From: a virus
Lineage: Duplodnaviria > Heunggongvirae > Uroviricota > Caudoviricetes
Length of the DNA: 17,891 nt
IMG/VR virus record: IMGVR_UViG_2645727810_000023
Location: 1-17,891 of that record
Direction: 5' to 3' (one strand)
Below the pieces are notes generated by a model. It ran no database searches. It saw only the letters and a list, made by a program, of their open reading frames with translations, and was not told where the DNA came from. Both the position numbers and the translations under genes were made by a program. Shown here in pieces: positions 424 to 15,072 of the stretch (position 1 is the stretch's first letter; each line of letters begins with the position of its first letter).

Positions 424-917
424 TGTTGCCCCCACAAACAGACTTCACGCTCAATCTCGCGGCGAGTCATCAGCCCTTTCCATTGCTTACCGCCAGCGTA
501 TGTCCAGCGCCGTAGCTGATCACATGCGCCTTTGATATCGCCCTGGTTTATTTTGCGAAGAAGCGTCGATGTTCTGAAATTGCCAGCGCCCACGTTGTAA
601 ACGAACGAGTAAAGAGCGCCGCGCGTTGTTTCCGGTATATCGACGTTGATGTACGGGTTAATTTGTCTGGCGACCGTGGCAAGGTCTTTATTCAGGAGGG
701 CTTTGCATTCTGCTTCGGTATACGTTTTACCGAGCATGATGTCTTTTCCGGTGTGTCCGTGACATACAGTCCATACGCCAACGATATCTTTGTATGGTAT
801 GTAGCTGACACCTTCCAGACCATCGTTACCACCCGGACCAGTGATGAGCACAGACGCTATGGCAACAGCCCCACCACCAATAGCAGCAGCAACAGCCTTG
901 CGTAATGACGGCGACAT
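420..917 (-). CDS. R: SAR endolysin (phage-21 R-type lysozyme with N-terminal signal-anchor-release domain)
   Basis: 165 aa with Gly/Ala-rich weakly hydrophobic N-terminus ([23 protein letters not shown]) followed by a T4-lysozyme-like catalytic region. Start overlaps holin stop, stop overlaps Rz start. Confidence 0.9.
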
Positions 918-1132
918 TATTCACCTCTCGCAGCCTTACGCTTATCTTCTTTAATCTTGAAATAAAGGTTTGTCAGATACGTCAGCAGGCCAAACAGCAG
1001 ACTACCCAGCACACCTATTGCCACCCACTGGGACGGAGAGACTTTATCCAGCAACTGCAAAAACCAGTACCCGGCACTACCTGCTGAGGTGCCATAGGCG
1101 ACACCCGTTGTTAACTTATCCATGGATTTCAT
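917..1132 (-). CDS. S: Class II holin (pinholin, S21-like) with dual-start motif MKSMDK
   Basis: 71 aa, two TM segments, C-terminal [13 protein letters not shown]. The two Met codons separated by Lys-Ser give the holin/antiholin dual-start arrangement. SD GAGGTGGGG upstream. Confidence 0.9.
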
Positions 1133-1165
1133 AACCCCACCTCGCAGATGCGGGTGCTGTGTAAT

Positions 1166-1192
1166 GGAAATAAAAAGGCCACCTACGTGGCC
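1166..1192 (-). terminator. Intrinsic terminator between methyltransferase gene and holin
   Basis: Minus-strand RNA would read GGCCAC-GUAG-GUGGCC followed by UUUUUAUUU (plus-strand stem GGCCAC 1177-1182 / GTGGCC 1187-1192, A-run 1166-1176), immediately after the methylase stop at 1199-1201. Confidence 0.5.
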
Positions 1193-1198
1193 ACCAGA

Positions 1199-2251
1199 TT
1201 ATTTCCCCACCAGCTCGTTTATCTCTTTCACTGTCTGGTTAAACCGCTCTGACTCAAGCTCAACACCTAAGGCCCGACGCCCCAGCGCCATTGCTGCTTT
1301 TATTGTGGAACCGGATCCCATAAAAAAATCAGCAACCAGATCACCAGGTCGACTACTGGCATTGATTATTTGCCGGAGCATATCCGCAGGTTTCTCACAC
1401 GGATGTTTACCCGGGTAGAACTGAACGGGTTTATGCATCCAGACATCGGTATAAGGCACGGAGACTGATACGGAGAAATAGCGCCGGAGAGATTTAAACT
1501 CATCCAGCAATTCAGAATATTTGCGATTCAGTGAATCATAAGATGCCACCAGCTGGTGGTGTGGTTGTTCCAGTTGTTGTTCCTGAAACTTCTCTGCCGC
1601 TATACGGGAAAACAGTGCCTGTAACTTCCGATAGTCAGCCTCATTCGGCAACTGCCACTGACTGGCACCAAACCAGTGGGAAACCATATTTTTCTTACCT
1701 GTGGCTTCGGCAATTTGTTTTGCCGTTATACCCAGTTCGGCACGAGCATCCCTGAAATACGATATCAGCGGTGCCATTATGTGCTGTTTGAGTTCCCTTT
1801 CTTTTGCCGCATAGCCGTCACTTTTGCCACGATATGGCCCCTGGTAATGTTCAGCAAACAGAACGCGCTCTGTGGCAGGAAAATATGCGCGCAGACTTTC
1901 TTTATTACACCCATTCCAACGTCCGGACGGCTTCGCCCAGATGATATGGTTAAGCACGTTGAAACGTTCACGCATCATGATCTCAATATCAGATGCCAGG
2001 CGATGCCCACAGAACAGGTAAAGACTTCCGGCAGGTTTCAGCACCCGCCAGAACTGCGCCAGACACTGGTCCTGCCACTTCAGGTAATCATCGTCGCCCT
2101 TCCACTGGTTATCCCAGCCCTCGGGCTTCACTTTAAAGTACGGCGGGTCCGTGACTATCAGGTCAACAGAATTTTCGGGTAACGACCGGATAAATTCCAG
2201 GCAGTCGGCGTTGACTAACTCACAACTGGATATTTTTACAGTATTAAGCAT
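1199..2251 (-). CDS. DNA N6-adenine (or N4-cytosine) methyltransferase, beta class (DPPY motif IV near N-terminus, FxGxG motif I near C-terminus)
   Basis: 350 aa; TDPPYF at about residue 35 and FFMGSGST at about residue 312, the circularly permuted order typical of beta-class amino-MTases. No adjacent restriction endonuclease candidate seen. Confidence 0.85.
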   Translation of the reverse strand: MLNTVKISSCELVNADCLEFIRSLPENSVDLIVTDPPYFKVKPEGWDNQWKGDDDYLKWQDQCLAQFWRVLKPAGSLYLFCGHRLASDIEIMMRERFNVLNHIIWAKPSGRWNGCNKESLRAYFPATERVLFAEHYQGPYRGKSDGYAAKERELKQHIMAPLISYFRDARAELGITAKQIAEATGKKNMVSHWFGASQWQLPNEADYRKLQALFSRIAAEKFQEQQLEQPHHQLVASYDSLNRKYSELLDEFKSLRRYFSVSVSVPYTDVWMHKPVQFYPGKHPCEKPADMLRQIINASSRPGDLVADFFMGSGSTIKAAMALGRRALGVELESERFNQTVKEINELVGK

Positions 2252-2401
2252 GGATCATTAAGCCTGTCTCTGATAGGCTCATTCTGCTTTTGCGCAAAGC
2301 AGTGGGCCTGAGGTTTGCTTGTGATCCGGACGCATGAGCAGATGGCTGGTGAGTGCCCCTAACACCCACCAGTCGCCCATTTACCACAAATAAAAAAGCC
2401 T

Positions 2402-2599
2402 TCAGGACTGAAGGCGTCTGTAACAACCGAACTGATAGTCTGCCAGACCCGCCATAACAAGCTGGGTCAGTATTAACTGGCAGCGTTCGCGTGAAAGGTA
2501 AGTATTCTGCGCAATCTCCCCGACTGTCGCCGGTTCGGTGACGCTTAATTCATTAAACACCACTCTGGCGGTTTCTGTCATATCCTGCTGTTTCAGCAT
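2402..2599 (-). CDS. Small hypothetical protein, possible winged-helix DNA-binding fold (alternative upstream start at 2692)
   Basis: ORF track gives 96 aa from 2692. The internal ATG at 2599 (MLKQQDMTETARVVF...) has an AAGGGA SD-like sequence about 9 nt upstream and lies downstream of the terminator at 2721-2743. Confidence 0.4.
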   Translation of the reverse strand: MLKQQDMTETARVVFNELSVTEPATVGEIAQNTYLSRERCQLILTQLVMAGLADYQFGCYRRLQS

Positions 2600-2720
2600 G
2601 TCTTTTTCCCTTTTTCGGTTAACGTGACACACCAATAACTCTTGTCGAAAAAGCCAGCAAGCTGAAAGACAGGTATTCACCGCCACCAGCACGTTTACTG
2701 TACTGGACCGATTTCAGCCA

Positions 2721-2743
2721 TAAAAAAACCCGCTCGCGGCGGG
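2721..2743 (-). terminator. Intrinsic terminator about 70 nt downstream of the Q-like gene (tR'-like position)
   Basis: Minus-strand RNA: CCCGC-CGCGA-GCGGG followed by UUUUUUUA (plus-strand A-run 2722-2728, stem 2729-2733 / 2739-2743). Confidence 0.6.
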
Positions 2744-2830
2744 TTTAAGCTGTGTGGCGAAGTAACCACTCTTAACATACTGACATACTTTTTGCGGACC
2801 GCACTAATCATTTTTTACTTTTTTAGCAGC
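2744..2830 (-). promoter_or_regulatory. Probable late promoter / Q-utilisation region (exact -35/-10 not resolved)
   Basis: Position only: interval between the 3' end of the Q-like gene and the tR'-like terminator. Candidate -10-like hexamers (TATGTT, TAAAAAAT on the minus strand) are present but no convincing -35. Confidence 0.3.
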
Positions 2831-3195
2831 CAGTCGTCCATCTCCAGTCTTACCCCCAGCACAGACAAACATCCGTCAATAAACCCTTCGGCTATCTGCA
2901 TCTCAATTCGTATTGCTTTTTCGCTTTTCTTTCTCTTCCTGGCTATCTGTCTTTTTGATATTCGCAACAAATAATGAGCAATGAGAAGCGAATACTCCTC
3001 AGGTTTTTTCTGCTTCAGACGAGCAAGACAGTTTTCAATGATAAGTCCGTCATCATCGCAGCAGGCCGGACGTGGTTTAGTGGCAGATGGTAAAAGTCCT
3101 TTGAATCCGGCAGCGATCGGAGAATAGTCCACCCCGGTGTTACCACTTGCAGCCCATGCCCCCCAGCGTTCAAGAACCATCTGAATATCACGCAT
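2815..3195 (-). CDS. Q: Late-gene antiterminator Q-like protein (phage 21 / DLP12 QuuD-like family)
   Basis: About 126 aa starting MRDIQMVLERWGAWAA... with GGAGA SD 8 nt upstream of ATG at 3195 (ORF track start 3210 is a TTG). Sits directly upstream of the tR'-like terminator and lysis genes. Family assignment from recalled similarity, not searched. Confidence 0.7.
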   Translation of the reverse strand: MRDIQMVLERWGAWAASGNTGVDYSPIAAGFKGLLPSATKPRPACCDDDGLIIENCLARLKQKKPEEYSLLIAHYLLRISKRQIARKRKKSEKAIRIEMQIAEGFIDGCLSVLGVRLEMDDWLLKK

Positions 3196-3212
3196 CAACT
3201 TTCTCCACAAAA

Positions 3213-4208
3213 TCAGGACAGCACACCAATCGCCAGCGCGCGATCGATAAAACGAAATATCAGCTCCAGTTGGGAACCATACTTCTCTTCAAATGCCACG
3301 GTATCCGCATGCAGTTCGTCATGGTGTTTTCTGCACAAAGGCAACACAAAAAGGTCATGCGCTTTTGTACCCATTCCACCCTGACCATGACCAATCAGGT
3401 GATGAGGATCGTCGGCTGGCTTACCACAACATGCACACGGCTGCGTCTTAACCCAGCGCGTGTACTTTTCATTAACCCAGCGACGACGTTTGGGGCGTAA
3501 CATAAAAGACTCCGGCGACTCCGGATCCACTTTCAGCGCCAGCACCTTTTTCGCCTTATCCCGGATGATGCTGGTGGCAGGAACCGAAGGCACAAGGTCA
3601 CTTTCCCGGGTGACAGACGGCACAACAGGCTTCGGTAATCTCAGTGCCTTACGGGCTGCACTTTCCGGTAAGGCATCCGCCAGGTCATTACGAACCAGCC
3701 ACCAGCACAGTTCCGGCATTGTCACAACGTGACTGTCATCAAAACCGAGATCCCGACGCACAACAGACAACACCCAGCGGGCACAGTTATCCGTTGCCAT
3801 TGATTCCAGACGTTCCGTGAACTGATCGCGAAGCAGGTTATCGCAGTGCCAGCACAGACGGATTGCGCCCGGCGCGTGTCGCATTGTGGTCATGTTCTCG
3901 CTGTGCCATCCGGAATGAGGCCACTGGCAGCCTTTTTCACGAAGTAACCAGCTCTCAAGGCATTCCACACCACCAGCACGACGGATCACCGCCTCATGGC
4001 GGAACACGGCCCGAACGGCAGGATCATCCGCCAGCGGTTGTGATGCTGCCGGAACGACACCACTGGCAAAAGATGAATAACGTTCCGGCTCAGGCTCCAG
4101 CAGGACACGCCCCTGCATAAACAGGGGCATCAGCTCTGAACCGGGTCTGAACAAGACGATCCCCATACGCGGGGCAATTTCAGGGGTCAGCAGTGCTCTC
4201 ACGGTCAC
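3213..4208 (-). CDS. DUF968-like protein with C-terminal Cys/His cluster (YdfU-like, nin-region protein)
   Basis: 331 aa; C-terminus PCACCGKPADDPHHLIGHGQGG...FVLPLCRKHHDELH resembles the conserved Cys/His motif of the DUF968 family. Start codon uncertain (GTG at 4208 or ATG at 4166, neither with a clear SD). Confidence 0.6.
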   Translation of the reverse strand: MTVRALLTPEIAPRMGIVLFRPGSELMPLFMQGRVLLEPEPERYSSFASGVVPAASQPLADDPAVRAVFRHEAVIRRAGGVECLESWLLREKGCQWPHSGWHSENMTTMRHAPGAIRLCWHCDNLLRDQFTERLESMATDNCARWVLSVVRRDLGFDDSHVVTMPELCWWLVRNDLADALPESAARKALRLPKPVVPSVTRESDLVPSVPATSIIRDKAKKVLALKVDPESPESFMLRPKRRRWVNEKYTRWVKTQPCACCGKPADDPHHLIGHGQGGMGTKAHDLFVLPLCRKHHDELHADTVAFEEKYGSQLELIFRFIDRALAIGVLS

Positions 4209-4254
4209 CTCAGCGAACGGTATTGCATGAACGCAGGAGAAAAAAATTCAGCCA

Positions 4255-4512
4255 TCACGCAGTAAACTCCTTCACCAGCGTTTCAAACTGGCTTACCTGT
4301 CCTTCCAGTTCCTCCACGCAATCCACCAGCTCATCCACCGCCTTTTGTGTACGGTGTTTTGCCTGCAGCAGATCACGAAGCGCCGGAGTAAGCTGCTTGC
4401 GGAGCGTATCTTTTGCCACGCTCGTTTTTTCCATCTGTTCAGCACAACGAAGCATCTCCTGCGCCTGCCGACGAAGTTGTTCCGGTGAAACAGTGGTTGT
4501 TCTGTTGTTCAA
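4255..4512 (-). CDS. Hypothetical small coiled-coil protein
   Basis: 85 aa ORF whose start (TTG at 4512, alternative internal ATG) overlaps the helicase stop. Charged helical composition. Function unknown. Confidence 0.45.
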   Translation of the reverse strand: MNNRTTTVSPEQLRRQAQEMLRCAEQMEKTSVAKDTLRKQLTPALRDLLQAKHRTQKAVDELVDCVEELEGQVSQFETLVKEFTA

Positions 4513-5909
4513 AATAAACGCTCCGTTTTACTGCCCGACATGCGGTTATTGCTGTATCTGCGCGGATTGCCCGGCGTCATGGGTGTGGAAAGAACCCGGG
4601 CACTCTCCTGGTCCACAGGCAGAAAATGTCCGTTATGAAAACGCCGGTAAATGGTCCCGAGCGTGCCATTACGCTGTTTCGTGATGTTGATTTCTGCTAT
4701 GCCTCTGGCCTGAGTTTCCGGGTTGTATACCTCATCCCTGTAAAGCATCAGAATGATGTCGGCATCCGCCTCGATTTCCCCGGAGTTTTTCAGGTCCGAG
4801 TTCATTGGGCGTTTATTGGGTCTGGATTCCACGCCGCGGGAGAGCTGGCTCAGAGCAATCAGCGGAAAACCGCCGGATTTTGCCAGGCTTTTAAGTCCCT
4901 TTGAGATTTCCCCCACCGCAAGGTCGTGACGCCCCGTGCTGCGGGTTTTAATCAGGCCGAGGTAATCGACCACCACCAGCGCCGTTTCCGGGTGTTTCAT
5001 CCGGTGGTGCTTCGTGGTTGCACATATCTCATCAATGGTCAGGTTTGCCTGGTCCACCATCCAGATATTACGCCCCGTCATTCGTCCCACGCCCTGCGAG
5101 AAACGCGCCCAGTCTTCATCTTCAAAACGGGCAACAGACTTAAGACGGGATACCGGCATTCCACCGGCAGCAGACACCATACGTTCACCAATCTGGATGT
5201 TCGCCATCTCCATGGTGAACAGAAGCACGCCATGCCCCTGCTCAGTCACCTTGTCGATGATGTCCAGCGCAAGTTCGGTTTTCCCCATCGAAGGACGGGC
5301 GGCAATGAATACCAGGTCTCCGGGCTCCATACCGCCCGTTTTTGCGTCCAGTTCATCAATACCGGTCATCAGCGCCCTGGATTTCTCCAGTCCCTGATTG
5401 CGGCATTCAACACGGTCGACCACTTCCGGAAGGACATCATCAATGTGAACCGGCTGAATGACGCCCTTTCCGGTCGACAGTGAGGCCATCATGTTCTGCA
5501 CATCCTTCAGGGCATCCTCGGCTGCTTCACAGGTATACGCATCACGTAAATTCTGTAATGCTTCAGTCAGTGTTTTTTCTGCATCGCGCAGTGCGGCATT
5601 GCGCCGCAACGCTGCGACATAGTGCTCCAGTGAAGACTTCACCCAGGTTTTGCGTCCGGTGTCGGTAATCACCGGGGCAAGTTCCGGCATCTCATTGCAC
5701 AGCAGTACGGGGTCAATGACGCCGGATATGCGAGCCTGTCTGCAAATCCCCGCGTAAATATCCCGGTACTGACGCACAAAAAATACATCCGCCGGAAGTG
5801 TGGCCAGAATATCCATCACTTCCGGATCGGCCCCACGCAGAAAAAACGCACCGATGACAGCGCCTTCCAGGTCATCGTTACGCCATGCCGGGGTGTTCTG
5901 GCTGGTCAT
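4509..5909 (-). CDS. Replicative DNA helicase, DnaB family
   Basis: 466 aa; Walker A ARPSMGKTELALDI, conserved DnaB C-terminal motifs (LIALSQLSRGVESRPNKRPMNSDLKNSGEIEADADIILMLYRDEVY). GGAGG SD; ATG overlaps stop of upstream gene. Confidence 0.9.
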   Translation of the reverse strand: MTSQNTPAWRNDDLEGAVIGAFFLRGADPEVMDILATLPADVFFVRQYRDIYAGICRQARISGVIDPVLLCNEMPELAPVITDTGRKTWVKSSLEHYVAALRRNAALRDAEKTLTEALQNLRDAYTCEAAEDALKDVQNMMASLSTGKGVIQPVHIDDVLPEVVDRVECRNQGLEKSRALMTGIDELDAKTGGMEPGDLVFIAARPSMGKTELALDIIDKVTEQGHGVLLFTMEMANIQIGERMVSAAGGMPVSRLKSVARFEDEDWARFSQGVGRMTGRNIWMVDQANLTIDEICATTKHHRMKHPETALVVVDYLGLIKTRSTGRHDLAVGEISKGLKSLAKSGGFPLIALSQLSRGVESRPNKRPMNSDLKNSGEIEADADIILMLYRDEVYNPETQARGIAEINITKQRNGTLGTIYRRFHNGHFLPVDQESARVLSTPMTPGNPRRYSNNRMSGSKTERLF

Positions 5910-6805
5910 GCGGCAACACCTCCGATACGAGAACGGTAGCTGGGCCAGTTAAACGACAACCAGTTGCGCCCGCCATCGGTGATCCTGTCGGCAATCCGGG
6001 GACTGATGAACGCCCACAATTCTTCCGGTGAAAGGTTGCTGATCAGGATAGTTGGCAAAATACCCTCATACCGGGCATTGATAATTTCCTGCAAAATGGC
6101 CATTTCAGCCGCACTGCCAAACTGAACGCCGACTTCGTCGACAATCAGCAAATCCAGTGACGCATAATGCTCAATGACGTCATCCGCTGTTTTTTCACTG
6201 TCATTCCGCCAGCAGTTTTTCACAGCCCGGGTAAGGCGCATCACGTCGGTGATCTCCACACTGGCCAGATAGTTACGGATGATGTGTTTTGCCATTGATA
6301 CCGCCAGATGATTTTTCCCGGTACCGCAACTGCCGGTCATAACAAGACTGGTACCGTTCTCCAGCATATCTGGCCAGTTCTCCGCATAGCGGCGACAGGC
6401 CGCAAGATTTCTGGCTGCGTCAGGATTAACCTCCAGATAATTATCAAACTCGCAGTCCCGAAAACGCAGAGCAATTCCGGCGTTATCAGTCAGTTCTTCC
6501 GCCTTGAGGGACGACAGTTCCATGGTCAAATCACTGGCCTCAGCGATCAAGCAGTCAGGGCAGCATGAAATTTTTTCTCTGTCCTCGCCATTACGATCGA
6601 TCCACACCAGTATATGCGTACGATATTTACCGTGTTTTTCGCAATATCCGCGACCTTCACGCATCAGGCAGGAACGATAAGGCCATGGCTTTTCGCCCTT
6701 CTGAGCAAATGCAATCTCTGCCCGTAACTCATCCATTTCTGCCCGTAACTCATCCATTCGCGCCTGTAGTCTTGTTTGTTTCTCACGTTGGTCAATCGTC
6801 ATCAT
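5906..6805 (-). CDS. DnaC-like helicase loader (IstB-like AAA+ ATPase)
   Basis: Walker A MTGSCGTGKNHLAVSMA, Walker B LLIVDEVG, N-terminal Cys-rich/coiled-coil region. ATG at 6805 has GAGGTG SD; ORF track start at 6814 is a GTG two codons upstream. Confidence 0.85.
   Translation of the reverse strand: MMTIDQREKQTRLQARMDELRAEMDELRAEIAFAQKGEKPWPYRSCLMREGRGYCEKHGKYRTHILVWIDRNGEDREKISCCPDCLIAEASDLTMELSSLKAEELTDNAGIALRFRDCEFDNYLEVNPDAARNLAACRRYAENWPDMLENGTSLVMTGSCGTGKNHLAVSMAKHIIRNYLASVEITDVMRLTRAVKNCWRNDSEKTADDVIEHYASLDLLIVDEVGVQFGSAAEMAILQEIINARYEGILPTILISNLSPEELWAFISPRIADRITDGGRNWLSFNWPSYRSRIGGVAA
6718..6759. repeat. Perfect-to-near-perfect 21-bp tandem duplication inside the DnaC-like gene
   Basis: CTGCCCGTAACTCATCCATTT followed by CTGCCCGTAACTCATCCATTC, encoding the in-frame heptad repeat MDELRAE-MDELRAE. 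Confidence 0.9.
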
Positions 6806-6815
6806 CGCTGTCACC

Positions 6816-7808
6816 TCAGAATGTCAATTTGTTACTGGATTTACCGAATTTGTCAGACATGGCTCCCAGGCCAGCCAGGACATCGACCTGTCGCTGTCGC
6901 CCACCTCCGTGAGCGGCTGGCTGTTGCCAGTAATCTTCGAAGTGACGATCGGGTCCAAAGAACGTCGCAGCCTGCTTCACGAACTGTGTGCCGGTATTTC
7001 CTGTAGCACGTACCCAGGCGGCATACCGCTTCACGCCATCAAGCATGGTCTCCGGTTTTATTCCCTCCCTGATACGGGCTTTCCAGGCTTTGAAGGCTGC
7101 TGACTTGGAATTGCCACCAGCACGTTTGGGATATTCCTGCCAGGCCTGTTCAAATTCCGGTGAATATTCCTGTCGGGCAGAACGCGCTGGCGCAGACGCG
7201 TCAGCGGATGCATCAATAGTGTTTTTAGTCTCCGTTGTAATCTCTGTAGTAATCTCTGTATTTGTATCAACATTCGGCGTATCCCCTGTTCCGTTATGAC
7301 GTCGGGGGGTGTTCCGTTTTAACGTAATAGCTGTATCGCTGATTGCATTATTGCTGTTACTTTCTGGCGAAACAGAAGAAGGTGTGGTGATGGCCGCAAT
7401 TGCCTGTGGGTTGATCCCGACAAACAAAATATTGCTGCATTTCACCCCATCGAGCATTTCCACCGTGCGTAAATCCAGAGTAATAAACCCTGCATCGCGC
7501 AGACGCTTCAGCGCATCTGCGGTTTCCCTTTTCCCGAAACCAAACTGCTCAGCAAACGCCTGGTAGCTTCTTTGCAGTTTGTCGCCCTGAAAACGCTTGC
7601 GATATCCCAGCAACGCTCCGGTGTGCTCATCCCTGACCTCTGTCGGGCGGTACCAGTAAACGATCTCTGAAAGCAGAGCGATAGCCGTCGCATCCGGACG
7701 CCCACTGGGTAGTCGAATATATTTCCACCAGTTCGCAGGTGTAACATTGCCGGAAATATTAATTTGACCAATAGCCATAACTTCCGGTGTGGGGGCGTAA
7801 CGGCTCAT
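6816..7808 (-). CDS. Replication initiator (O-like / replisome organiser) protein
   Basis: 330 aa; position immediately upstream of DnaC-like and DnaB-like genes. Internal low-complexity linker (TEITTEITTE, DASADASA) encoded by DNA iterons. AGGAGG SD. Family assignment by context rather than recognised motif. Confidence 0.65.
   Translation of the reverse strand: MSRYAPTPEVMAIGQINISGNVTPANWWKYIRLPSGRPDATAIALLSEIVYWYRPTEVRDEHTGALLGYRKRFQGDKLQRSYQAFAEQFGFGKRETADALKRLRDAGFITLDLRTVEMLDGVKCSNILFVGINPQAIAAITTPSSVSPESNSNNAISDTAITLKRNTPRRHNGTGDTPNVDTNTEITTEITTETKNTIDASADASAPARSARQEYSPEFEQAWQEYPKRAGGNSKSAAFKAWKARIREGIKPETMLDGVKRYAAWVRATGNTGTQFVKQAATFFGPDRHFEDYWQQPAAHGGGRQRQVDVLAGLGAMSDKFGKSSNKLTF
7237..7318. 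repeat. Iteron-like direct repeats inside the O-like gene (putative replication origin)
   Basis: GTAATCTCTGTA at 7237-7248 and again at 7249-7260; GTTCCGTT at 7288-7295 and 7311-7318; A+T-rich stretch between. Confidence 0.45.
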
Positions 7809-8104
7809 ACAACCTCCTTCCGCGGCATGAGAATTGTGTAGCCACGCGCAGGTTGTAGTCTGGCTTTTGCATCAATAGTAAGCGTTGCAATTTTTCGGAT
7901 ATGAAGATAACCAGCTCTTTCCAGTGCCAGGGTTTTCCTGAATATCGCTTGCTTAGAACAACAGCAGAAATCAGCAAGCACCTGATGATCAATAACTCTC
8001 TCGCCTTCACCGTCTGAAGAACCCGACATCAAAACACGCAACATAATCAGGCGCTGAATCGGGTTATCGAAAGCACATCCGCACACAAACTGAAAACAGT
8101 TCAC
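7805..8104 (-). CDS. Hypothetical protein, possible helix-turn-helix DNA-binding (occupies cII-like position)
   Basis: 99 aa; GTG start at 8104 with GGAGG SD 6 nt upstream, overlapping upstream stop (GTGA). Segment SKQAIFRKTLALERAGYLHIRK looks HTH-like. Function not established. Confidence 0.5.
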   Translation of the reverse strand: MNCFQFVCGCAFDNPIQRLIMLRVLMSGSSDGEGERVIDHQVLADFCCCSKQAIFRKTLALERAGYLHIRKIATLTIDAKARLQPARGYTILMPRKEVV

Positions 8105-8325
8105 GCCACACCTCCCAGACGCTTAAACATTTTTCCAGACAGAAATACCGCCAGAGGGTAACTGATGGTGTAGCTACGCCCCTGTAGTTCGCACACGACT
8201 TTCTGGCTTTCAGCGTTGACTAGGCAAACCCGCAGAACGTGACCGTTGCTGGTGGCGAACCACTGCCCCACACGGGGGCAACGGTTGTATCGGTGATACA
8301 GGGAATTAACGATGTGGCGGATCAT
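8101..8325 (-). CDS. Hypothetical protein
   Basis: 74 aa; ATG at 8325 with GGAGG SD, overlaps stop of the upstream gene and start of the downstream gene. Confidence 0.5.
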   Translation of the reverse strand: MIRHIVNSLYHRYNRCPRVGQWFATSNGHVLRVCLVNAESQKVVCELQGRSYTISYPLAVFLSGKMFKRLGGVA

Positions 8326-8516
8326 GGACGCACCTCCGCCGTAGTTACGTATTTAACCGGGCTACCTTTCATTGAGATGGTTTCACACATCTCTGCCGCT
8401 TTCAGTTCCGCTGTTTTTCTGGATTTATAGCGACGGTGCCAGACAGATACATCCGTGCGAACTGATACATCGTTTCTGTATTCCGTAGTGGAGATGATGA
8501 TTTCGTAACTAATCAT
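8322..8516 (-). CDS. Hypothetical protein
   Basis: 64 aa; ATG at 8516 with AGGAGG SD, ATGA overlap with the Rha-like gene stop. Confidence 0.5.
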   Translation of the reverse strand: MISYEIIISTTEYRNDVSVRTDVSVWHRRYKSRKTAELKAAEMCETISMKGSPVKYVTTAEVRP

Positions 8517-9376
8517 GGGCGAACCTCCTTGTCAGAACCATTCAGCCTGGAATCAACAAGTGCAGCGCCAAAAACAGCATCACCAACACGGTCGTACAGT
8601 TTGCTAGCCAGCGGAGATTCAACGGCCTTAAGCATTGGATAAAGCTGGCTTGTCCAGATTTGATGGATTTCACGCAAATGCAGGTATACGCCTCTGGCGT
8701 TTCGTGCGACAGCTGACATATCAGACGCATCGGCACCTGATAAACTCTTCTCCATCAGGTTAAAGGCGTTGATGTATGCCTCTTTGAACCGGGCAGCACG
8801 TTTACCCGTGAAACCCATAGCAAGAAATGCAAAACCGTCTCGTGTGATTTGATAGCAAGGGAGCTTGCGTGTACCGCCGTTCGGTTGATTTACCGAAATC
8901 GATGTCTCCGCAAAATTGCGGGCACAAAACTCAGGGGAACAATCCAGAGTGCGGATCTTTTTCAGCACATCGTCGTGACGCTTGGAGAAGAAGTTGGCAA
9001 CAGCCAAAGAAGTGGTAACGGCCTGGCCGTTGTCAATGGTGATTTCAGGTTGAGTGAGGGCTGGGATCGTAGCCATGATGGCAGCCTCCGTTGACAGTGA
9101 AAAACTTCCACCACCGGAAACGCCAATTTCACTGGTGGTGAACTGGACGGGGTTGGCGTAACCGGCGTCAACGGAGACCGGCGCACCTTTCGGTGCCCCC
9201 GCCCAGCCCACCATAATCTGGATGTGAGCAAATGCGGACGATAAAAAAGACGCTGGCGCGTCATACATCGCCGTTGACAATTTCAGGACGCCAATCCCGG
9301 CACCCGCTTTATAAGGTGCAGAGACAGTGTAACGTCCCGAAATTGCAGAATCAATATTTGGTCTTGAAATGATCAT
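8513..9376 (-). CDS. Rha-family (ORF6N / Bro-N-like) phage regulatory protein, with N-terminal extension or alternative internal start at 9076
   Basis: C-terminal 187 aa carry FSKRHDDVLKKIRTL...CYQITRDGFAFLAMGFTGKRAARFKEAYINAFNLME, typical of Rha/ORF6N. Internal ATG at 9076 has a GGAGG SD; the ATG at 9376 has none. The upstream 100 codons still show E. coli-like codon choice. Confidence 0.65.
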   Translation of the reverse strand: MIISRPNIDSAISGRYTVSAPYKAGAGIGVLKLSTAMYDAPASFLSSAFAHIQIMVGWAGAPKGAPVSVDAGYANPVQFTTSEIGVSGGGSFSLSTEAAIMATIPALTQPEITIDNGQAVTTSLAVANFFSKRHDDVLKKIRTLDCSPEFCARNFAETSISVNQPNGGTRKLPCYQITRDGFAFLAMGFTGKRAARFKEAYINAFNLMEKSLSGADASDMSAVARNARGVYLHLREIHQIWTSQLYPMLKAVESPLASKLYDRVGDAVFGAALVDSRLNGSDKEVRP

Positions 9377-9459
9377 ATAGCTGCTGATATCTTTAGAACT
9401 GTTCTTGGATGTTTCGGAGCCGTTTTATGCGAAACAGCTCCCCGTTATTGATGTTGAGT

Positions 9460-9485
9460 GAGCCGGGTTACTCCCGGCTTTTTTT
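9460..9485 (+). terminator. Plus-strand intrinsic terminator inside the minus-strand early operon
   Basis: GCCGGG (9462-9467) - TTACT - CCCGGC (9473-9478) followed by TTTTTTT (9479-9485). The reverse complement lacks a downstream U-run. Confidence 0.5.
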
Positions 9486-10192
9486 CACCGCTGCCAACCA
9501 ATAACCTGAAATAACCCCATTTTCGGGTGATACCAGCGAGTCCCTCGCGGTTCTGCTTCCTCCATAACCCGATAAAAAGCAGCCATAAACGGTTCCACAG
9601 CAACAATTGCGCGACGTGACAACAATCCGTCCGGCGTCATGAACTCATGTGTGTCTGTAGGAATTTGATAGGCGTTCACCAGATTGCGGCATTTATCATC
9701 TGACAAACCGGTTTTTGCTTTCAGTTGGCGATATCCGGCATAGCCCTCACGAATAGTGCCCTTTTTAATTTGCTCGACTGTTTCAGCAACGTGGCTGACT
9801 TTTTCTTCCACCTGAGTGATCCGTTTCTGTTGGCGAACGGCTTCAAGAGCCATCGCGGCAACCATTTCGATTTCGCTCATTGGCTTACGGATCTGTTCTT
9901 CCAGTTCGCGCCAGCGATCTACCAGGCGAGCAGTGAATTCAGGACAGAGCTGTGCGACGACAATGATGCTGTCGCGCTTACCTCGTTCACCTTCGAATAC
10001 ATACGCGCTAGAAAATCGGCGAGGCCCAAGTGATTGTTTATTCTCAATTTCCACAGTCTGTGGAAATTGGATGATTCCCTTTTTAGCCAGTGTTTCAATA
10101 GTTCTCTTAACACTATCTGGTCGGCTTCCCACCAGCTCTGCGATCTCAACGCTGGTCATGGATGCTTTGCCGTTAAAAATTGCGGTGTTCAT
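9485..10192 (-). CDS. Putative phage regulatory / antirepressor-like protein (Rha/Bro-N-like N-terminus)
   Basis: 235 aa; N-terminal SVEIAELVGSRPDSVKRTIETL resembles the DNA-binding start of Rha-type proteins. AGGAG SD; ATG overlaps cro-like stop (ATGA). Confidence 0.5.
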   Translation of the reverse strand: MNTAIFNGKASMTSVEIAELVGSRPDSVKRTIETLAKKGIIQFPQTVEIENKQSLGPRRFSSAYVFEGERGKRDSIIVVAQLCPEFTARLVDRWRELEEQIRKPMSEIEMVAAMALEAVRQQKRITQVEEKVSHVAETVEQIKKGTIREGYAGYRQLKAKTGLSDDKCRNLVNAYQIPTDTHEFMTPDGLLSRRAIVAVEPFMAAFYRVMEEAEPRGTRWYHPKMGLFQVIGWQR

Positions 10193-10416
10193 TGTTGGTC
10201 TCCTGTGGGCTTGTCATCTTCTGTATTCGCTAGACTTGGGTGTGTATATGGAATGCTCGGATCCAGATGACAAAGAATGGCAACATCCTCCGGAACACCT
10301 CGCGTTTTCCACTTTCCAACACCTTGACTGCCACGAGGCCTTCCTTTCTTTGGGAACCTGCGACCAATAGCGGCATTGGTTTTAAATTGAATTTTTAATA
10401 TTTCATAAAGGGTCAT
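10189..10416 (-). CDS. Putative Cro-like small regulator (by position, divergent from cI)
   Basis: 75 aa, first gene of the rightward (minus-strand) operon, translationally coupled to the next gene. Motif GVGKWKTRGVPEDVA loosely resembles the SQWK..IPE motif of Cro/YdaS-type proteins. Weak. Confidence 0.45.
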   Translation of the reverse strand: MTLYEILKIQFKTNAAIGRRFPKKGRPRGSQGVGKWKTRGVPEDVAILCHLDPSIPYTHPSLANTEDDKPTGDQQ

Positions 10417-10527
10417 TCTTTAGTCTCACACCAGATACTTTGTTATCCAACGATGTTAACCACAGGAACCCAAAGTATCAAGAAATTCTGTTACTTTAGT
10501 ATCAACAGCCATGAGAGGAGAAGAAAA
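10417..10527. promoter_or_regulatory. Right operator / divergent promoter region between cro-like gene and cI
   Basis: Repeated half-site CAAAGTA/TACTTTG at 10436-10442, 10471-10477 and 10493-10499. Candidate minus-strand promoter TTGATA (10481-10476) - 17 bp - TAACAT (10458-10453). Confidence 0.5.
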
Positions 10528-11184
10528 ATGAAGTCTTTAGGTGAACGTCTCATCAACGCACGGCAAAAAGCGGGGTTAACACAAGATGCGTTGGCTAAAA
10601 AAGCTGGGGTCACCAGAGTTGCAATCAGTAAAGCCGAGCAAGGCCTTACAAAAAGTTTCAACGGTGACACCCTTTTTAAAGTTGCAGCTGCACTGCGGTG
10701 TTCACCGCAGTGGCTTCAGAACGGAGATGAAAAAGATAAGCATTGGGAAAATAATGTTAAGAGCTGCCCACAGAGAGACACAGCACACTCTTACCCTGTA
10801 ATTAACTGGGTTCAGGCAGGATTATTCGCAACTTCTGGTGATGACTACAACATGTATGATCAGGATAATTGGAGGCATTCTGTAAAATACGCTGGTGAGA
10901 GGGGGTTCTGGCTGGAAGTGCACGGAGACTCAATGACTTCGCCCGTAGGAATAACATTTCCTGAAGGAATGTCGATCCTTGTCAACCCAGATAAAGAAGT
11001 TTTTTCAGGGTGTTACGTCATCGCCAGAAAAAAATCTACCAATGAAGCAACATTCAAAAAATATATTTCTGACATGGGAAAGGCGTTTCTAAAGCCCCTT
11101 AATCCACAATATCCAATCATAGAAATGGACAATGATTGCGAAATAGTAGGTGTTGTGGTTGATGCCAGGTGGGATATTTTCTGA
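10528..11184 (+). CDS. cI: CI-type prophage repressor (N-terminal HTH, C-terminal LexA/S24 autopeptidase domain)
   Basis: MKSLGERLINARQKAGLTQDALAKKAGVTRVAISKAEQG HTH, then HGDSMTSP (catalytic Ser) and VIARKKS (Lys). GAGGAG SD before ATG at 10528; the ORF-track start at 10453 is an upstream in-frame extension. Confidence 0.9.
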   Translation: MKSLGERLINARQKAGLTQDALAKKAGVTRVAISKAEQGLTKSFNGDTLFKVAAALRCSPQWLQNGDEKDKHWENNVKSCPQRDTAHSYPVINWVQAGLFATSGDDYNMYDQDNWRHSVKYAGERGFWLEVHGDSMTSPVGITFPEGMSILVNPDKEVFSGCYVIARKKSTNEATFKKYISDMGKAFLKPLNPQYPIIEMDNDCEIVGVVVDARWDIF

Positions 11185-11287
11185 CCAGACACAAAACACA
11201 AAAAGAAACCAAAGTATCAAAAATCACTTGCCACACCTTGATACCTTAGTTACCATAAAACAAAGTTCGTAACTGAGGTATCATCTC
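11185..11287 (+). promoter_or_regulatory. Left operator / promoter region downstream of cI
   Basis: Same operator-like motif: CAAAGTATCAA at 11208-11218, inverted TTGATAC at 11238-11244, CAAAGTT at 11261-11267. Candidate promoter TTGCCA (11228-11233) - 17 bp - TACCAT (11251-11256). Confidence 0.4.
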
Positions 11288-11791
11288 ATGATCAATAAAG
11301 CTACAACTCTTGACTGTCTCGAAGAACTGAAAAACCTCGGCAGCCTCATTACACTAATAGCAAAAGCAACACCTGATGCTACGCTCTCTAGCGATATAGA
11401 GTCATGCGCAGGACTGGCATGGGATATGACAAATAGCATATCCAGAAAGCTATCGTCAGCAATGCTTTTACAGAACAAAAATTCTGCAATCAGCAACCGT
11501 CTTCGCACCCAACGCGAAGCCTGCGGCTTAACAACCGCCGAACTCGCCAGGCTGCTCGATCTCGATGAAGAAATTATCATCCAGTGGGAGAGCGGAGAGT
11601 ATGAACCAACTATCAGTATGCTTATCCCACTGGCAAATATTCTTGGCTGCGATCCGATGTGGCTGTTAACTGGTGAGGTTACTCCTCCGGAGCAACCAAA
11701 AAGTGAGGAGCAGCAACACCATGACGCATCTCAACAAGTTTGCCCCTTATCTCGCGAAGCTCTTCTGCGGAAGAACCAATACCAATGGTGA
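11288..11791 (+). CDS. HTH (XRE/Cro-C1-type) domain protein with about 60-aa N-terminal extension
   Basis: 167 aa; GAGGT SD 8 nt before ATG. Central ISNRLRTQREACGLTTAELARLLDLDEEIIIQWESGEYEPTISMLIPLANILGCDPMWLLTG is a typical XRE-family HTH. Not an Arg-rich N-like protein. Confidence 0.6.
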   Translation: MINKATTLDCLEELKNLGSLITLIAKATPDATLSSDIESCAGLAWDMTNSISRKLSSAMLLQNKNSAISNRLRTQREACGLTTAELARLLDLDEEIIIQWESGEYEPTISMLIPLANILGCDPMWLLTGEVTPPEQPKSEEQQHHDASQQVCPLSREALLRKNQYQW

Positions 11792-11919
11792 CATAATCGC
11801 CGCTTCGCCCCTCAAGGTACATGCGAACATTTTTATCAATCATTGCGGAAACAGTCTCAATATGAAAACACTTCTGAGACTCGCTATATAGCAGAACATA
11901 TAAGTCAGCTGAGGAAGCC

Positions 11920-12285
11920 ATGAAAAAGTTCGAAAACATAACTGTTCTCCATGTTGATGACTTTGATTATACAAACCCGGAACTTCTCCCGGAGGTTGTA
12001 AAGGCAATAGATGTTGCCGATATAGTGATTAGAGAAAAGAGAATTATCAAAAACAGGCTCGCATGCACTTCAGGAGCAATGACAGAAACAACCTCACAGC
12101 AAGATAATTACGAAGGCATTTGTCTGGAGCCTGATTCATTTGCGGTAAATGTTTATCATTTATTGCATGCAACACAGGTATTACATATGTCCAGTAATCA
12201 CGAAACGAAAACACTCGGCAGCGAAATTCTGAGTTTTGCATGTGAGTATGCAAAAGCTACTGCCGAAAAAGAATTAGCGCAATAA
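11920..12285 (+). CDS. Hypothetical protein
   Basis: 121 aa, GAGGAAG SD 5 nt upstream of ATG. No recognised motif. Confidence 0.55.
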   Translation: MKKFENITVLHVDDFDYTNPELLPEVVKAIDVADIVIREKRIIKNRLACTSGAMTETTSQQDNYEGICLEPDSFAVNVYHLLHATQVLHMSSNHETKTLGSEILSFACEYAKATAEKELAQ

Positions 12286-12363
12286 CAACAAATATGCCCT
12301 GAACGTTTATTGCGGTTTTATCGCCGGGGATTGTTACAACCTTAATCCACAGGAGGCTTTATT

Positions 12364-12477
12364 GTGACTTTTATAAAGAATATGGCATCACACAAGACCG
12401 CCTGCCTTATTGCACAATACGGTGAAAATTACATGCATATTGCCTGCTTATTTCTGCGTAAAGCATACGGGAGATAA
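12364..12477 (+). CDS. Possible small ORF (37 codons) with strong SD
   Basis: AGGAGG at 12351-12356, 7 nt spacer, GTG at 12364. Stop directly abuts the next gene's ATG at 12480. Below the ORF-track length cutoff. Confidence 0.3.
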   Translation: MTFIKNMASHKTACLIAQYGENYMHIACLFLRKAYGR

Positions 12478-12479
12478 TA

Positions 12480-12662
12480 ATGCATCAGAAAACAGCAGAA
12501 CACGAACAAACCAGAGTATTGCTGACCATCAAAAACGGGAAAGTAATATTCATTCGCCATGTTCATGACGATGAACTTGTAGGAATTCTTTCAACATTCC
12601 TGTTTATTGCAGAAAAGGCAGGATATGACGTTATTGCACCAGCAGATGAAGATGAGGAATAA
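12480..12662 (+). CDS. Hypothetical small acidic protein
   Basis: 60 aa, GGGAG SD 8 nt upstream. C-terminus PADEDEE. Confidence 0.5.
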   Translation: MHQKTAEHEQTRVLLTIKNGKVIFIRHVHDDELVGILSTFLFIAEKAGYDVIAPADEDEE

Positions 12663-12667
12663 ATATC

Positions 12668-13249
12668 ATGCAATACGATGAATTCCAGGCTGAAGCAACA
12701 GCCAATGGTATACGAACTGGCAGTATGACGATTGATTATCACGACGCCATACGTCGTCTGGATGCCGGAGAATTCGATACTCCTAATGTGCGAGGTTTAC
12801 GTATCCTTCAGTGTCTGGCGCAAGCCGACGAAGCAGGATTACTGGGTAAACTTCCGGTTGAGATGAAGGTTGCTCAGTGGCGATGGTTGTATGTGACGAC
12901 ATTCATCAACGAAGAAGAAGACAAGAACGGCACAATTGATATCTTGAATGAACACGGAACAACTGAACACGCCGTGGTATATAACGGGATGTATGGGTTT
13001 ATGACGATATATCCCGGCCCCATTCGATTTGCCTTACAACAGTATATTGAATGGAATTTAATTCAAAAATACGGCGAAGCTGAAGGAATGGGAAGAGCGC
13101 TGTTTCTTTATCAGAAAATGCTCACTACTTCCCCTGATAAAGGTTTCATTCTTTCAGATATGGGTCGAGAAGGGCTTGAAATCCTTCTGGATGAAATTAT
13201 TAACGAAATGAATACTCATGGCATGCAATCCGAAACAGATATTAAGTAA
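12668..13249 (+). CDS. Hypothetical protein
   Basis: 193 aa, GAGGA SD, starts 5 nt after the preceding stop. No recognised motif. Confidence 0.6.
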   Translation: MQYDEFQAEATANGIRTGSMTIDYHDAIRRLDAGEFDTPNVRGLRILQCLAQADEAGLLGKLPVEMKVAQWRWLYVTTFINEEEDKNGTIDILNEHGTTEHAVVYNGMYGFMTIYPGPIRFALQQYIEWNLIQKYGEAEGMGRALFLYQKMLTTSPDKGFILSDMGREGLEILLDEIINEMNTHGMQSETDIK

Positions 13250-13259
13250 AAGGGACCAC

Positions 13260-13508
13260 ATGACCGTTATCGAGTATATCCAGGAAAATCCAGATTGCAG
13301 TAGAGAAGATATATCCCTCGCACTTGGAAGAAGCGCAACTTCTATCAGTAATGAATTATCACGGTTATTGTGGAATGGGTTAATAGTACGAACTGGAGAA
13401 AAAAACAAAATGATTCTGTACTGCGTAAACAATCTGCCGTTTGGATACAGCAATCCCCTAAGTGTTATGTTCAACCAGTTACTTAAACAGGTAAGAAATG
13501 GCAACTGA
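13260..13508 (+). CDS. Small putative winged-helix DNA-binding protein
   Basis: 82 aa from ATG at 13260 (AAGGGA SD); the ORF-track start at 13218 overlaps the previous gene. Segment CSREDISLALGRSATSISNELSRLLWNGLIVRTGE looks wHTH-like. Confidence 0.5.
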   Translation: MTVIEYIQENPDCSREDISLALGRSATSISNELSRLLWNGLIVRTGEKNKMILYCVNNLPFGYSNPLSVMFNQLLKQVRNGN

Positions 13509-13815
13509 CTCACAACTAACCATAGAAACGGCCCTGAATGTCGGCCTGGCGCTCCTTGGTTATTTTTACATCGTGTTCTGCAGCGGACGGTGGCTGTCGC
13601 TGTTGTTCCTGAAAAAATGGAATAAACGCCGTAAGCAGGATGAACGCCAGAAGGCAATGAATGCGTTTTCCGAAGCCTTCGGAATTGACGGCATGGAACC
13701 AGGGGATCCAGCTCGCGCAATCAGCAGAGGGGGTGTAGTAATCCTTGTATATCGGAGTGAAGAGAAAAATGACGATCACAAAACAACGAGTAGAAAAAAT
13801 CATATATCGCCATGA
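13498..13815 (+). CDS. Small predicted membrane protein (one TM helix, basic juxtamembrane region)
   Basis: 105 aa; hydrophobic stretch ALNVGLALLGYFYIVFCSGRWLSLLFL followed by KKWNKRRKQDERQK. AGGTAAGAA SD. Overlaps the upstream gene by 11 nt. Confidence 0.55.
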   Translation: MATDSQLTIETALNVGLALLGYFYIVFCSGRWLSLLFLKKWNKRRKQDERQKAMNAFSEAFGIDGMEPGDPARAISRGGVVILVYRSEEKNDDHKTTSRKNHISP

Positions 13816-14083
13816 AATGGGACTGAACAGCGATGTCACTGCCGAAGAGGTTTATGACCTGGCTGTACTGGCGCTGAATTTATCAAATATCGCAAACCTG
13901 AAGCGATACGAGCTTGATATGGATGGTTGCGACTCGTGCGGTCAGGATTGTGGCGCAGATATGACTGAAGATCCTGATGGTGATTATGTCCTGTTTGATG
14001 ACGTGGTTAAGTTGTTTGAATTTGATACAACCACTCAAAAGTTAGAAATCCCGGCAAAGGAGGCTGCCAGTGAGCAAGATTGA
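13769..14083 (+). CDS. Hypothetical acidic protein
   Basis: 104 aa from ATG at 13769 (ORF-track start 13745 is TTG). Contains CDSCGQDCG. Overlaps neighbours at both ends. Confidence 0.45.
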   Translation: MTITKQRVEKIIYRHEMGLNSDVTAEEVYDLAVLALNLSNIANLKRYELDMDGCDSCGQDCGADMTEDPDGDYVLFDDVVKLFEFDTTTQKLEIPAKEAASEQD

Positions 14084-14555
14084 CTATCAGGCACTGCGTG
14101 AGGTGGCGGAACGTGCAATTCCAGCAATGGAACGCCTGTTAATGTTGCCAGCTGATGATGACTTGTTAAGTGAACAGGAACTTAAAGATTACGGTGTGGA
14201 TATTGATGCGCTCAACGCCTTCAAATTTCTGACCGGACCAGAAACCGTGCTGGCACTGCTGGATGAACGGGAAAGAAACCTGCAATACATCAAAAGCCGC
14301 GATCAGGAGAACGAGGATATTGCGCTAACGGTAGGGAAGCTGCGCGTTGAGCTTGAAGCAGAAAAACAGCGGGCAAAAGTTCTATTTATGGAAAATGCTC
14401 GGCTTAAGTCAGGCATAGCCGGTCTGATACACCTCGGTATTCGATATGCAGATGTTGAGGTCATGAAAATTGCTGGAGATGCCCAGCTTTCTACCCCATG
14501 CACTGACAGCATCATAAACAGCATTGCAACAGGCATTCGCATCAAAGGAGAGTGA
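14070..14555 (+). CDS. Ead/Ea22-like early protein (tentative)
   Basis: 161 aa from GTG at 14070 with AAGGAGG SD. N-terminus MSKIDYQALREVAERA... recalled as typical of Ea22-like proteins of lambdoid prophages. Not verified by search. Confidence 0.5.
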   Translation: MSKIDYQALREVAERAIPAMERLLMLPADDDLLSEQELKDYGVDIDALNAFKFLTGPETVLALLDERERNLQYIKSRDQENEDIALTVGKLRVELEAEKQRAKVLFMENARLKSGIAGLIHLGIRYADVEVMKIAGDAQLSTPCTDSIINSIATGIRIKGE

Positions 14556-14556
14556 T

Positions 14557-15072
14557 ATGGCGTTAACACACCACGAACTCTGTCAGATTGCGTACAAGTT
14601 CCTTAAGCGCAACGGGTTCAAGGTTTGCTTTCATGACCGCTTTGTTGCTGTAACCAGTACCGGAGAACAGCCAGATGCTATGGGATTCAGAAATTCAGCA
14701 TCATGCCTGATAGAGGCGAAGTGTTCTCGTGCTGACTTGTTGGCAGATAGAAAAAAGCGTTTCCGTAAAAATCCCTCACTTGGCATGGGCGACTGGCGAT
14801 TCTTTATTAGTGAGCCGGAAATTATTTCAGTTGAGGATTTACCTCCCGGCTGGGGATTACTTCACGTTGTTAACGGAAGAGTACGGAAAGTACATGGATG
14901 GCCCAGGGGTAATTGCTGTTGGGGTAATCCTGACGATAAGCCATTTACTGGGAATAAGCAGGTTGAATGCGATTACATGTTATCTGCATTAAGGCGCATG
15001 GAGTTGAGAGGGCACCTTAATGAAATATATGACGGTGTGATTGTTAATAAGAAAGAAGGAAACGCGGCATGA
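14557..15072 (+). CDS. Putative PD-(D/E)xK-fold nuclease-like protein
   Basis: 171 aa from ATG at 14557 (AAAGGAGAG SD). Motif GEQPDAMGF ...(8 aa)... LIEAKCSRADL fits the D...E-x-K pattern of restriction-endonuclease-fold / Hjc-type nucleases. Confidence 0.5.
   Translation: MALTHHELCQIAYKFLKRNGFKVCFHDRFVAVTSTGEQPDAMGFRNSASCLIEAKCSRADLLADRKKRFRKNPSLGMGDWRFFISEPEIISVEDLPPGWGLLHVVNGRVRKVHGWPRGNCCWGNPDDKPFTGNKQVECDYMLSALRRMELRGHLNEIYDGVIVNKKEGNAA

Follow-up and report, generated by a model that had tools for sequence, protein, structure and literature searches.

The DNA analyzed here, called the window below, is a viral stretch of 17,891 nucleotides (nt; positions 1 to 17,891 of IMG/VR record IMGVR_UViG_2645727810_000023) and comes from a lambdoid prophage of E. 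coli, whose early control region it represents. The first non-coding gap that follows the promoter PR contains a compact element (9359-9485, about 125 bp) that, on balance, probably encodes a discrete plus-strand small RNA (sRNA) of about 85 nt. Its transcription would converge with that from PR, and it would be an analogue of the oop RNA of lambda. The gap is the first of its kind after PR because the two genes that precede it, a cro-like gene and a gene of the Roi/Rha family, overlap. We favor a plus-strand sRNA because the element ends at a -35 hexamer on one side and a terminator on the other, because the geometry of the promoter is kept while the sequence of its spacer is not, and because the predicted transcript has the architecture of an sRNA. 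The proposed unit would comprise a sigma-70 promoter at 9364-9393, a start near 9400 and a terminator end at 9483-9486.

Signals of a putative plus-strand transcription unit

The preliminary description of this DNA reported a plus-strand intrinsic terminator in the gap, and we find it base for base. Its core pairs GCCGGG (9462-9467) with CCCGGC (9473-9478) around the loop TTACT (9468-9472), and an extension to eight pairs (GAGCCGGG/CCCGGCTT) spans 9460-9480. Seven T follow at 9479-9485, bringing the whole signal to 9460-9485; the last of them also opens the complement of the stop codon of Roi/Rha. The full hairpin (GAGCCGGG/CCCGGCUU) has a folding energy of -14.5 kcal/mol, with 6 G-C pairs among its 8, and it ranks first among the terminator-like sites of the window. 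Under stringent criteria (7 bp or more in the stem, 5 or more G-C pairs and 6 or more T in a row) the window holds 2 terminators against 0.01 per dinucleotide shuffle, so that such sites are about 200-fold rarer in shuffled sequence. Stem, loop and U-tract lie within the ranges for intrinsic terminators (stem 5-8 bp or more, loop 3-8 nt, U-tract of at least 5-6). On the reverse complement, A7 comes ahead of the stem and UCACUCAAC behind it, and the signal is therefore orientation-specific, acting on plus-strand transcripts only. We predict that it is a strong intrinsic terminator.

The putative promoter lies 95 bp upstream of the terminator and likewise agrees with what had been described: a -35 hexamer TTGAAA (9364-9369, plus strand), a spacer of 18 nt and a -10 hexamer TATCTT (9388-9393). 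The -10 is of the extended type (TGaTATCTT, 9386-9393, with TG at 9386-9387), which gives a match of 9/12 to the consensus plus TG at -15/-14. No other of the 18 promoter-like sites in the window has a TG-extended -10, and the match is closer than that of the neighboring isrK promoter, P_isrK (8/12, read by eye). As a positive control, the same scan applied to lambda recovered both pO (TTGAGT-17-TG-CATAAT, 9/12 plus TG) and the oop terminator. With the usual 6-8 nt between a sigma-70 -10 element and the start, transcription would begin at 9399-9401.

A transcript between these signals (89 nt, 9399-9487) is predicted to fold into two hairpins, stem-loop 1 and the terminator, with a folding z score of -3.4. 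Its 5' end would be single-stranded and would present an 8-nt motif, GTTCTTGG at 9401-9408 (GUUCUUGG in the predicted RNA), which is a possible seed and lies 5-12 nt from the predicted 5' end. Stem-loop 1 follows at 9416-9441 (GGAGC-c-GTTTT, loop ATGC, GAAAC-a-GCTCC); its outer arms, GGAGC (9416-9420) and GCTCC (9437-9441), are the second stem that had been noted. A U/A-rich linker at 9442-9459, ending in the conserved GTTGAG and measuring 16-18 nt in all alleles, joins it to the terminator hairpin and its tail of U7-8. By sequence, the U/A-rich stretch (linker UUAUUGAUGUUGAG or similar), the terminator hairpin and the U7-8 make up a candidate Hfq-type 3' module (for which at least 6-7 U are expected), again in all alleles. 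RNAalifold suggests, in addition, that GUUCUUGG (9401-9408) may pair with the 5' arm of the terminator at 9463-9471 (CCGGGUnAC; 7 pairs, 2 of them G-U). Such a fold is much weaker than the terminator; as an alternative to it, it might hide the 5' motif or compete with the terminator.

We found no conserved open reading frame (ORF) within the predicted RNA, the frame differing between alleles. A small peptide was rejected as its product, as the frame opened by the ATG at 9409 stays open up to the terminator and is not shared between alleles.

Three alleles of one architecture

The element is always flanked by the C-terminus of Roi/Rha on one side and by the P_isrK block on the other. The version in the window, allele A, occurs at 99% identity or more in 205 of 5,426 complete E. 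coli genomes, so that this allele alone is present in about 4% of them. Its carriers include Stx2a phages, O26, O103, O111, O145 and some O157 strains, and extraintestinal pathogenic E. coli. Loci with the element include NC_013353.1:2181726-2181854 (O103:H2 12009), NC_013364.1:2433076-2433204 (O111:H- 11128) and NC_017646.1:2510051-2510179 (CE10), and ECOR13 (PhiR49_2) is a further carrier. Neither Sakai nor EDL933 is among the matches listed, and the dRNA-seq, Term-seq and Hfq CRAC data published for Sakai are therefore probably of no use here. The distribution is narrow, confined to prophages of E. coli and Shigella, and allele A itself is nearly invariant, with few variants. Searches of E. 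coli genomes, viral contigs and metagenomes recovered two other alleles, B and C, and no more. A pattern scan of metagenomes likewise yielded no further allele: the pattern was loose, most of the 120 matches are due to chance, and the real ones are A, B and C. The bodies of the three alleles are only 56-70% identical, compared with 96-100% in both flanks, and we therefore regard them as old variants swapped by recombination rather than as products of recent drift.

The divergent segment ends where the signals lie, at the -35 hexamer and the T-run, and the signals themselves are kept through otherwise replaced sequence. TTGAAA forms an island of identity in A, B and C amid adjoining bases that differ, with a single contig reading TTGGAA. 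The -10 is TGgTATTTT in B and C. The spacer is fixed at 18 nt across alleles, with 8 of the 18 bases different, and the promoter-like site that had been described in the window is also present in the divergent alleles. The motif GUUCUUGG is invariant in every variant of the three alleles, within surroundings that cannot be aligned between them. Stem-loop 1 recurs at the same position with a new sequence in each allele: GGAGC-c-GUUUU/GAAAC-a-GCUCC in A, GGC-uu-ACUUC/GARGU-u-GCC in B and GGC-CUGC/GCAG-uu-GCC in C. Within B the loop varies (UUUGU, UCUGU, UCAGU, UUUUGU) and the stem is kept. The terminator stem is the same throughout, with loops TTACT, TCACTA, TTACTA, TCACTC and TGACTA and a T-run of 7-8. 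The predicted RNA would measure some 85 nt in A, 92 nt in B and 82 nt in C.

In an N-padded structural alignment of these sequences, 98-99% of cells pair, both partners are replaced in 3 of the 5 inner pairs of stem-loop 1, and none of 500 shuffles reaches the observed covariation score. The alignment was fitted by hand to the structure, and is hence biased toward it; it replaced MAFFT/RNAalifold, which mis-aligned the hairpins. We take the covariation of the hairpin as supportive, not decisive.

The element belongs to neither of its neighbors as such. We rejected it as a feature of the Roi/Rha gene, since in Yersinia, Providencia, Proteus, Atlantibacter and others the gene that follows the homologue abuts or overlaps it and there is no terminator, and as a general feature of the isrK module, since most such modules have coding sequence, for example DUF4222, directly upstream. 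Allele type also assorts independently of cI/cro type, of the Roi/Rha N-terminus and of antirepressor type. A protein operator, with stem-loop 1 acting as a DNA palindrome, was set aside on the same evidence.

Proposed action and competing explanations

The predicted RNA would be perfectly complementary to messenger RNA reading through from PR at the junction between Roi/Rha and the isrK, ant and replication genes. The target could be the phage's own message or that of a superinfecting phage carrying the same allele. Most likely the RNA would act as oop does, through cleavage (which in the oop family depends on RNase III) or decay of the read-through message, or through interference between the converging polymerases. 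It is also possible, as a second route, that the RNA acts in trans through GUUCUUGG and its Hfq-type 3' module. The RNA had been thought antisense to the leader preceding the Rha-like ORF. This applies to the PR read-through transcript and not to a simple leader: the isrK/C4 module has its own promoter, P_isrK, and the predicted RNA would therefore be antisense only to PR read-through, and not to IsrK or to the ribosome binding site of ant/Rha. From the signals, their rarity and their conservation, all of them observed directly, we infer transcription, RNA ends, target and effect alike. As to the earlier proposal of an oop-like antisense sRNA, the comparison of the three alleles fits a self-contained plus-strand unit, and the likeness to oop extends to layout but not to sequence.

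Several observations weigh against a plus-strand sRNA. Promoter-like matches are not enriched in the window, with 18 found and 22 expected. With only three alleles, the covariation may amount to 2-3 events, and the terminator stem, which never varies, is uninformative on covariation either way. The conserved flanks adjoin the promoter and the terminator, and part of the conservation may be due to recombination boundaries. The element is absent from Rfam and from the papers on phage sRNAs and on sRNAs of enterohaemorrhagic and enteropathogenic E. coli (EHEC/EPEC) that we checked. We found no convincing trans target in the window. The one candidate is CCAAGAACAG at about 16691-16700 (plus strand), inside the integrase coding sequence (16578-17891) and about 115 nt into it; over all 10 nt it is complementary to CUGUUCUUGG, which lies at the 5' end of the RNA predicted for allele A. 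The duplex has an energy of -18.2 kcal/mol, and chance alone would give about 0.03 matches of this kind in the window. Alleles B and C conserve no more than 8 of the 10 nt, and this allele A-specific match is probably a chance one. Lastly, the stem-loop 1 hairpin of allele A is more stable on the minus strand (-15.1 against -11.8 kcal/mol), where it forms a continuous 10-bp helix, and two allele A polymorphisms (GGAAC and CAGAGC) keep their pairing only there.

These last points raise the question of whether the functional molecule is instead the minus-strand RNA, that is, two hairpins following the roi/Rha stop codon in the polycistronic PR message. They might stabilize or process a 3' end that parts cro-roi from the isrK-ant-replication message, or shield the folding of IsrK, and the plus-strand signals would then be incidental. 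The minus strand is certainly transcribed during lytic growth, and the region folds there with a z score of -3.1. Yet the plus strand gives the better pairing in alleles B and C and in the L277 variant, and a minus-strand function gives no reason for a run of A7-8 ahead of the hairpin or for conserved promoter hexamers. By eye we saw no boxA (CGCTCTT-like) beside the hairpin and no copy in the presumed leader of PL; a search of the window allowing up to 2 mismatches returned no further copy of the hairpin, no U-tract follows it and Rfam gives no match. A minus-strand role is, in our judgment, unlikely. The asymmetries between G-U and A-C wobbles are equivocal as to the acting strand, and constraint would fall on both strands if the two RNAs work as an antisense pair. 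Specific minus-strand elements were also considered and rejected: a lambda-type nut site, which has a boxA followed by a boxB hairpin and a second copy (nutL) in the PL transcript (no boxA seen, no second hairpin copy in the window), a minus-strand terminator (no U-tract) and a dnaX-like frameshift or UGA recoding at the UGA-A7-hairpin, where the slippery A_AAA_AAG is not in the zero frame (read by eye). A put-like element is unlikely, as about 19 nt separate the hairpins, which are thus not adjacent, and Rfam gives no match.

The terminator by itself, strong, orientation-specific and invariant as it is, could also serve purely as an insulator that blocks transcription running leftward, in the direction of cI, into the roi-cro-cI immunity region, with a short RNA as a by-product that has no function itself. 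The source of such transcription might be a spurious or divergent promoter next to P_isrK, or antisense transcription pervading the early and late genes, and it would otherwise collide with PR or reach cI. The setting suits this idea, since cI lies about 1 kb downstream on the same strand and nearly all of the 9.4 kb to the left is antisense on the plus strand. An insulator nevertheless leaves unexplained why the 8-nt 5' motif, the hairpin and the hexamers and spacing of the promoter should be kept across bodies of 56-70% identity, and most phages with an isrK module or Roi/Rha homologues do without such a terminator. We consider this explanation rather unlikely. It is highly doubtful, in turn, that the element is a non-functional mosaic joint, a spacer or scar left between the often-recombining Roi/Rha and isrK immI modules, with signals that are remnants of an older arrangement. 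It does sit exactly at the module boundary, many different sequences occur upstream of the isrK promoter block, the distribution of the element is narrow, and the near-invariance of allele A fits a recent spread. But three deeply diverged alleles share architecture and signals, and a scar would not retain hairpin complementarity through complete replacement of its sequence.

An extension of the plus-strand sRNA, quite improbable in our view, is that it determines specificity, given that the alleles differ mainly in stem-loop 1 and assort independently of their neighbors. A resident prophage would make the RNA constitutively, and the RNA would pair, perhaps from its variable loop, with the PR transcript of an incoming phage of the same allele. 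Expression of isrK, ant, the replication genes and Q would be cut off, providing, without dependence on cI, a second layer of immunity or exclusion. In that case the invariant GUUCUUGG would serve as a nucleation site or as a separate seed aimed at the host. The logic is comparable to the heteroimmunity of P1/P7 c4 or P4 CI, with a different site of action.

Known RNAs and the surrounding operon

In layout, the plus-strand sRNA that we favor resembles lambda oop. At 77 nt against about 85 nt, oop too is leftward, constitutive-looking and driven by a sigma-70 promoter with a TG-extended -10; it converges on PR after the second gene of the PR operon and before the replication genes, and has two hairpins, the second a strong intrinsic terminator that scores equally in the same scan. 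The preliminary description had noted this layout and supposed the position in the operon to be different. The analogy of layout is sound, and the position hardly differs, the gap being the first non-coding one after PR. Local alignments of all three alleles to oop score 16-18, where shuffled sequences average 15.5 (p = 0.17-0.42); the sequences are not similar, and therefore we speak of analogy, not membership. The two differ further in that oop, with its promoter at the start of the gene after cII and its terminator within the 3' end of the gene upstream, overlaps the last 55 nt of cII. The candidate would end at the stop codon of the upstream gene (9485-9487), overlap its coding sequence by 1-3 nt at most and otherwise cover untranslated sequence. 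The gene upstream is of the Roi/Rha type rather than CII, an isrK/C4/antirepressor module rather than O lies downstream, and the candidate has three alleles with a variable hairpin.

The sar RNA of P22 is likewise a small antisense RNA encoded just upstream of an antirepressor gene and directed against the ant operon, but it covers the ant ribosome binding site (summarized in PMC12197685). In contrast, the candidate (9400-9485) would start about 320 nt upstream of the likely Rha/Ant start at about 9076 and would overlap neither that binding site, nor the annotated ATG at 9376, nor the P_isrK transcript. There was no sar match in the Rfam scan, though it is uncertain that Rfam holds a sar model. 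IsrK and C4 (P1 immI, Gifsy-1 isrK-orf45-anrP) are immediate neighbors in the same regulatory region, with promoters back-to-back. They are encoded on the opposite strand and share neither sequence nor complementarity with the candidate, which has no match to RF01695 or RF01394, and most isrK modules lack the element. The Hfq-dependent sRNAs of pathogenic E. coli prophages (AgvB/AsxR, StxS, HnrS, Pas) are similar in being short, with a single-stranded 5' region and a terminator with a long U tail, and such prophage sRNAs, like the candidate, form families of alleles in which the 3' end is conserved and the body varies (PMC4104026). They lie in late-gene or moron regions, unlike the early operon here, and show no sequence match.

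None of the RNAs that we compared accounts for the candidate. Against Rfam 15 the plus strand of the element gave only sub-threshold matches driven by the terminator, for example sroD at 24.5 bits with a gathering threshold of 50. The EHEC/EPEC RNAs EcOnc22/23/24, of about 85 nt, were rejected as its identity because they map to tail genes, and HnrS and Pas because they are located in late regions. The element is missing from a 2025 review of phage sRNAs, and the hairpin sequence does not occur in the paper collection searched. On computational evidence, the candidate looks like a cis-antisense or small RNA of a known sort in the early operon of a lambdoid phage, previously unreported in the papers searched. 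Its transcription, if it occurs, would add a regulatory RNA to the region that controls early lysis-lysogeny and replication in widespread lambdoid prophages. The element adjoins the isrK/C4/antirepressor switch that controls prophage induction in Salmonella, and could thus, if our reading is true, offer a testable handle on PR read-through into the antirepressor module.

A prophage of strain E300082 matches the region at 99.4% identity, and relatives include Stx1a and Stx2a phages, phiP27, ASU11 and PhiR49_2. The PR-type operon runs on the minus strand, beginning with the cro-like gene (10189-10416), which overlaps the gene for a Roi/Rha-family DNA-binding protein of 235 amino acids (9485-10192); the stop codon of the latter (TGA, 9487-9485) abuts the terminator T-run. 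After the gap come an ORF of 287 amino acids annotated as 'Rha family / ash family' (8513-9376) and, further downstream, small ORFs, O-like, DnaC-like and DnaB-like replication genes, a DUF968 protein and, distally, the antiterminator Q (Pfam Phage_antitermQ, 2815-3210). To the left of the gap the plus strand is antisense to genes over almost all of 9.4 kb. The assertion that only minus-strand genes are annotated within about 5 kb to left and right fails on the right, where a gene for a cI-like repressor of the LexA family (10453/10528-11184) lies on the plus strand and starts about 1 kb from the gap.

Immediately to the left of the element on the minus strand are an isrK-family RNA with its own terminator (9319-9243; Rfam RF01394, 62.2 bits against a gathering threshold of 50) and a C4 antisense RNA of the P1 immI / STnc1160-like type (9218-9131; RF01695, 81.4 bits against 45). 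The isrK RNA is also present in all related loci. The putative P_isrK (9326-9354, minus strand) has TTGATT at 9354-9349, a 17-nt spacer and TACACT at 9331-9326, read by eye relative to the isrK 5' end at 9319. Its block is conserved in all isrK modules, and its -35 hexamer lies 9 bp from that of the plus-strand promoter, back-to-back. In Gifsy-1 of Salmonella a promoter drives isrK-orf45-anrP, and the C4-like RNA STnc1160 is processed from read-through transcripts (PMC4825925). A few phages (viral contigs L115 and L120) have a divergent protein gene starting ATGAACTACACTATCGAATAC upstream of P_isrK, and thus the back-to-back position hosts divergent transcription units elsewhere too. In many related phages a small gene of the DUF4222 type abuts the isrK promoter block, as in Stx1a phage LC567819 (L002, 4835-5027) and in viral loci such as L108 and L122; annotation has fused it into one long 'antirepressor Ant' ORF running through isrK and C4.

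The 287-amino-acid ORF of the window appears to be overcalled in a similar manner. Its Pfam Phage_ASH domain (amino acids 16-111) overlies isrK and C4, and Phage_pRha covers amino acids 121-210; a weak c4-a1b1 match also lies inside it, as isrK and C4 do. The ATG at 9376 has no Shine-Dalgarno sequence and lies upstream of P_isrK. Its N-terminal 100 or so codons (9043-9376) are probably non-coding, and the true Rha/AnrP-like protein probably starts near M101 (about 9076). The same overlong pattern is seen in L001 and L003-L006. Phage_ASH seems, from these overlaps, to be regulatory RNA that does not code for protein but has been translated in annotation. The problem is a wide one, since ORFs named 'Ash family protein', and the long ones named 'Rha family', appear to be isrK/C4 RNAs read as protein in thousands of genomes.

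Terminators elsewhere in the window also deserve mention. Loose criteria return 35 terminator-like sites across it, about twice the 18.8 expected in shuffles (standard deviation 3.6). The isrK terminator (GACGCGCCAGCGTC plus T6, 9243-9262, minus strand) lies inside the PR operon, ahead of the antirepressor, replication and Q genes. PR transcripts must pass it; we recognized no N-like gene or nut site in the window. The other stringent terminator is AAACCCGCCGCGAGCGGGTTT plus a T-run (2746-2720, minus strand), about 70 nt past the Q stop codon, and looks like part of a PR'-tR' unit giving a short constitutive RNA of the lambda 6S or StxS type.

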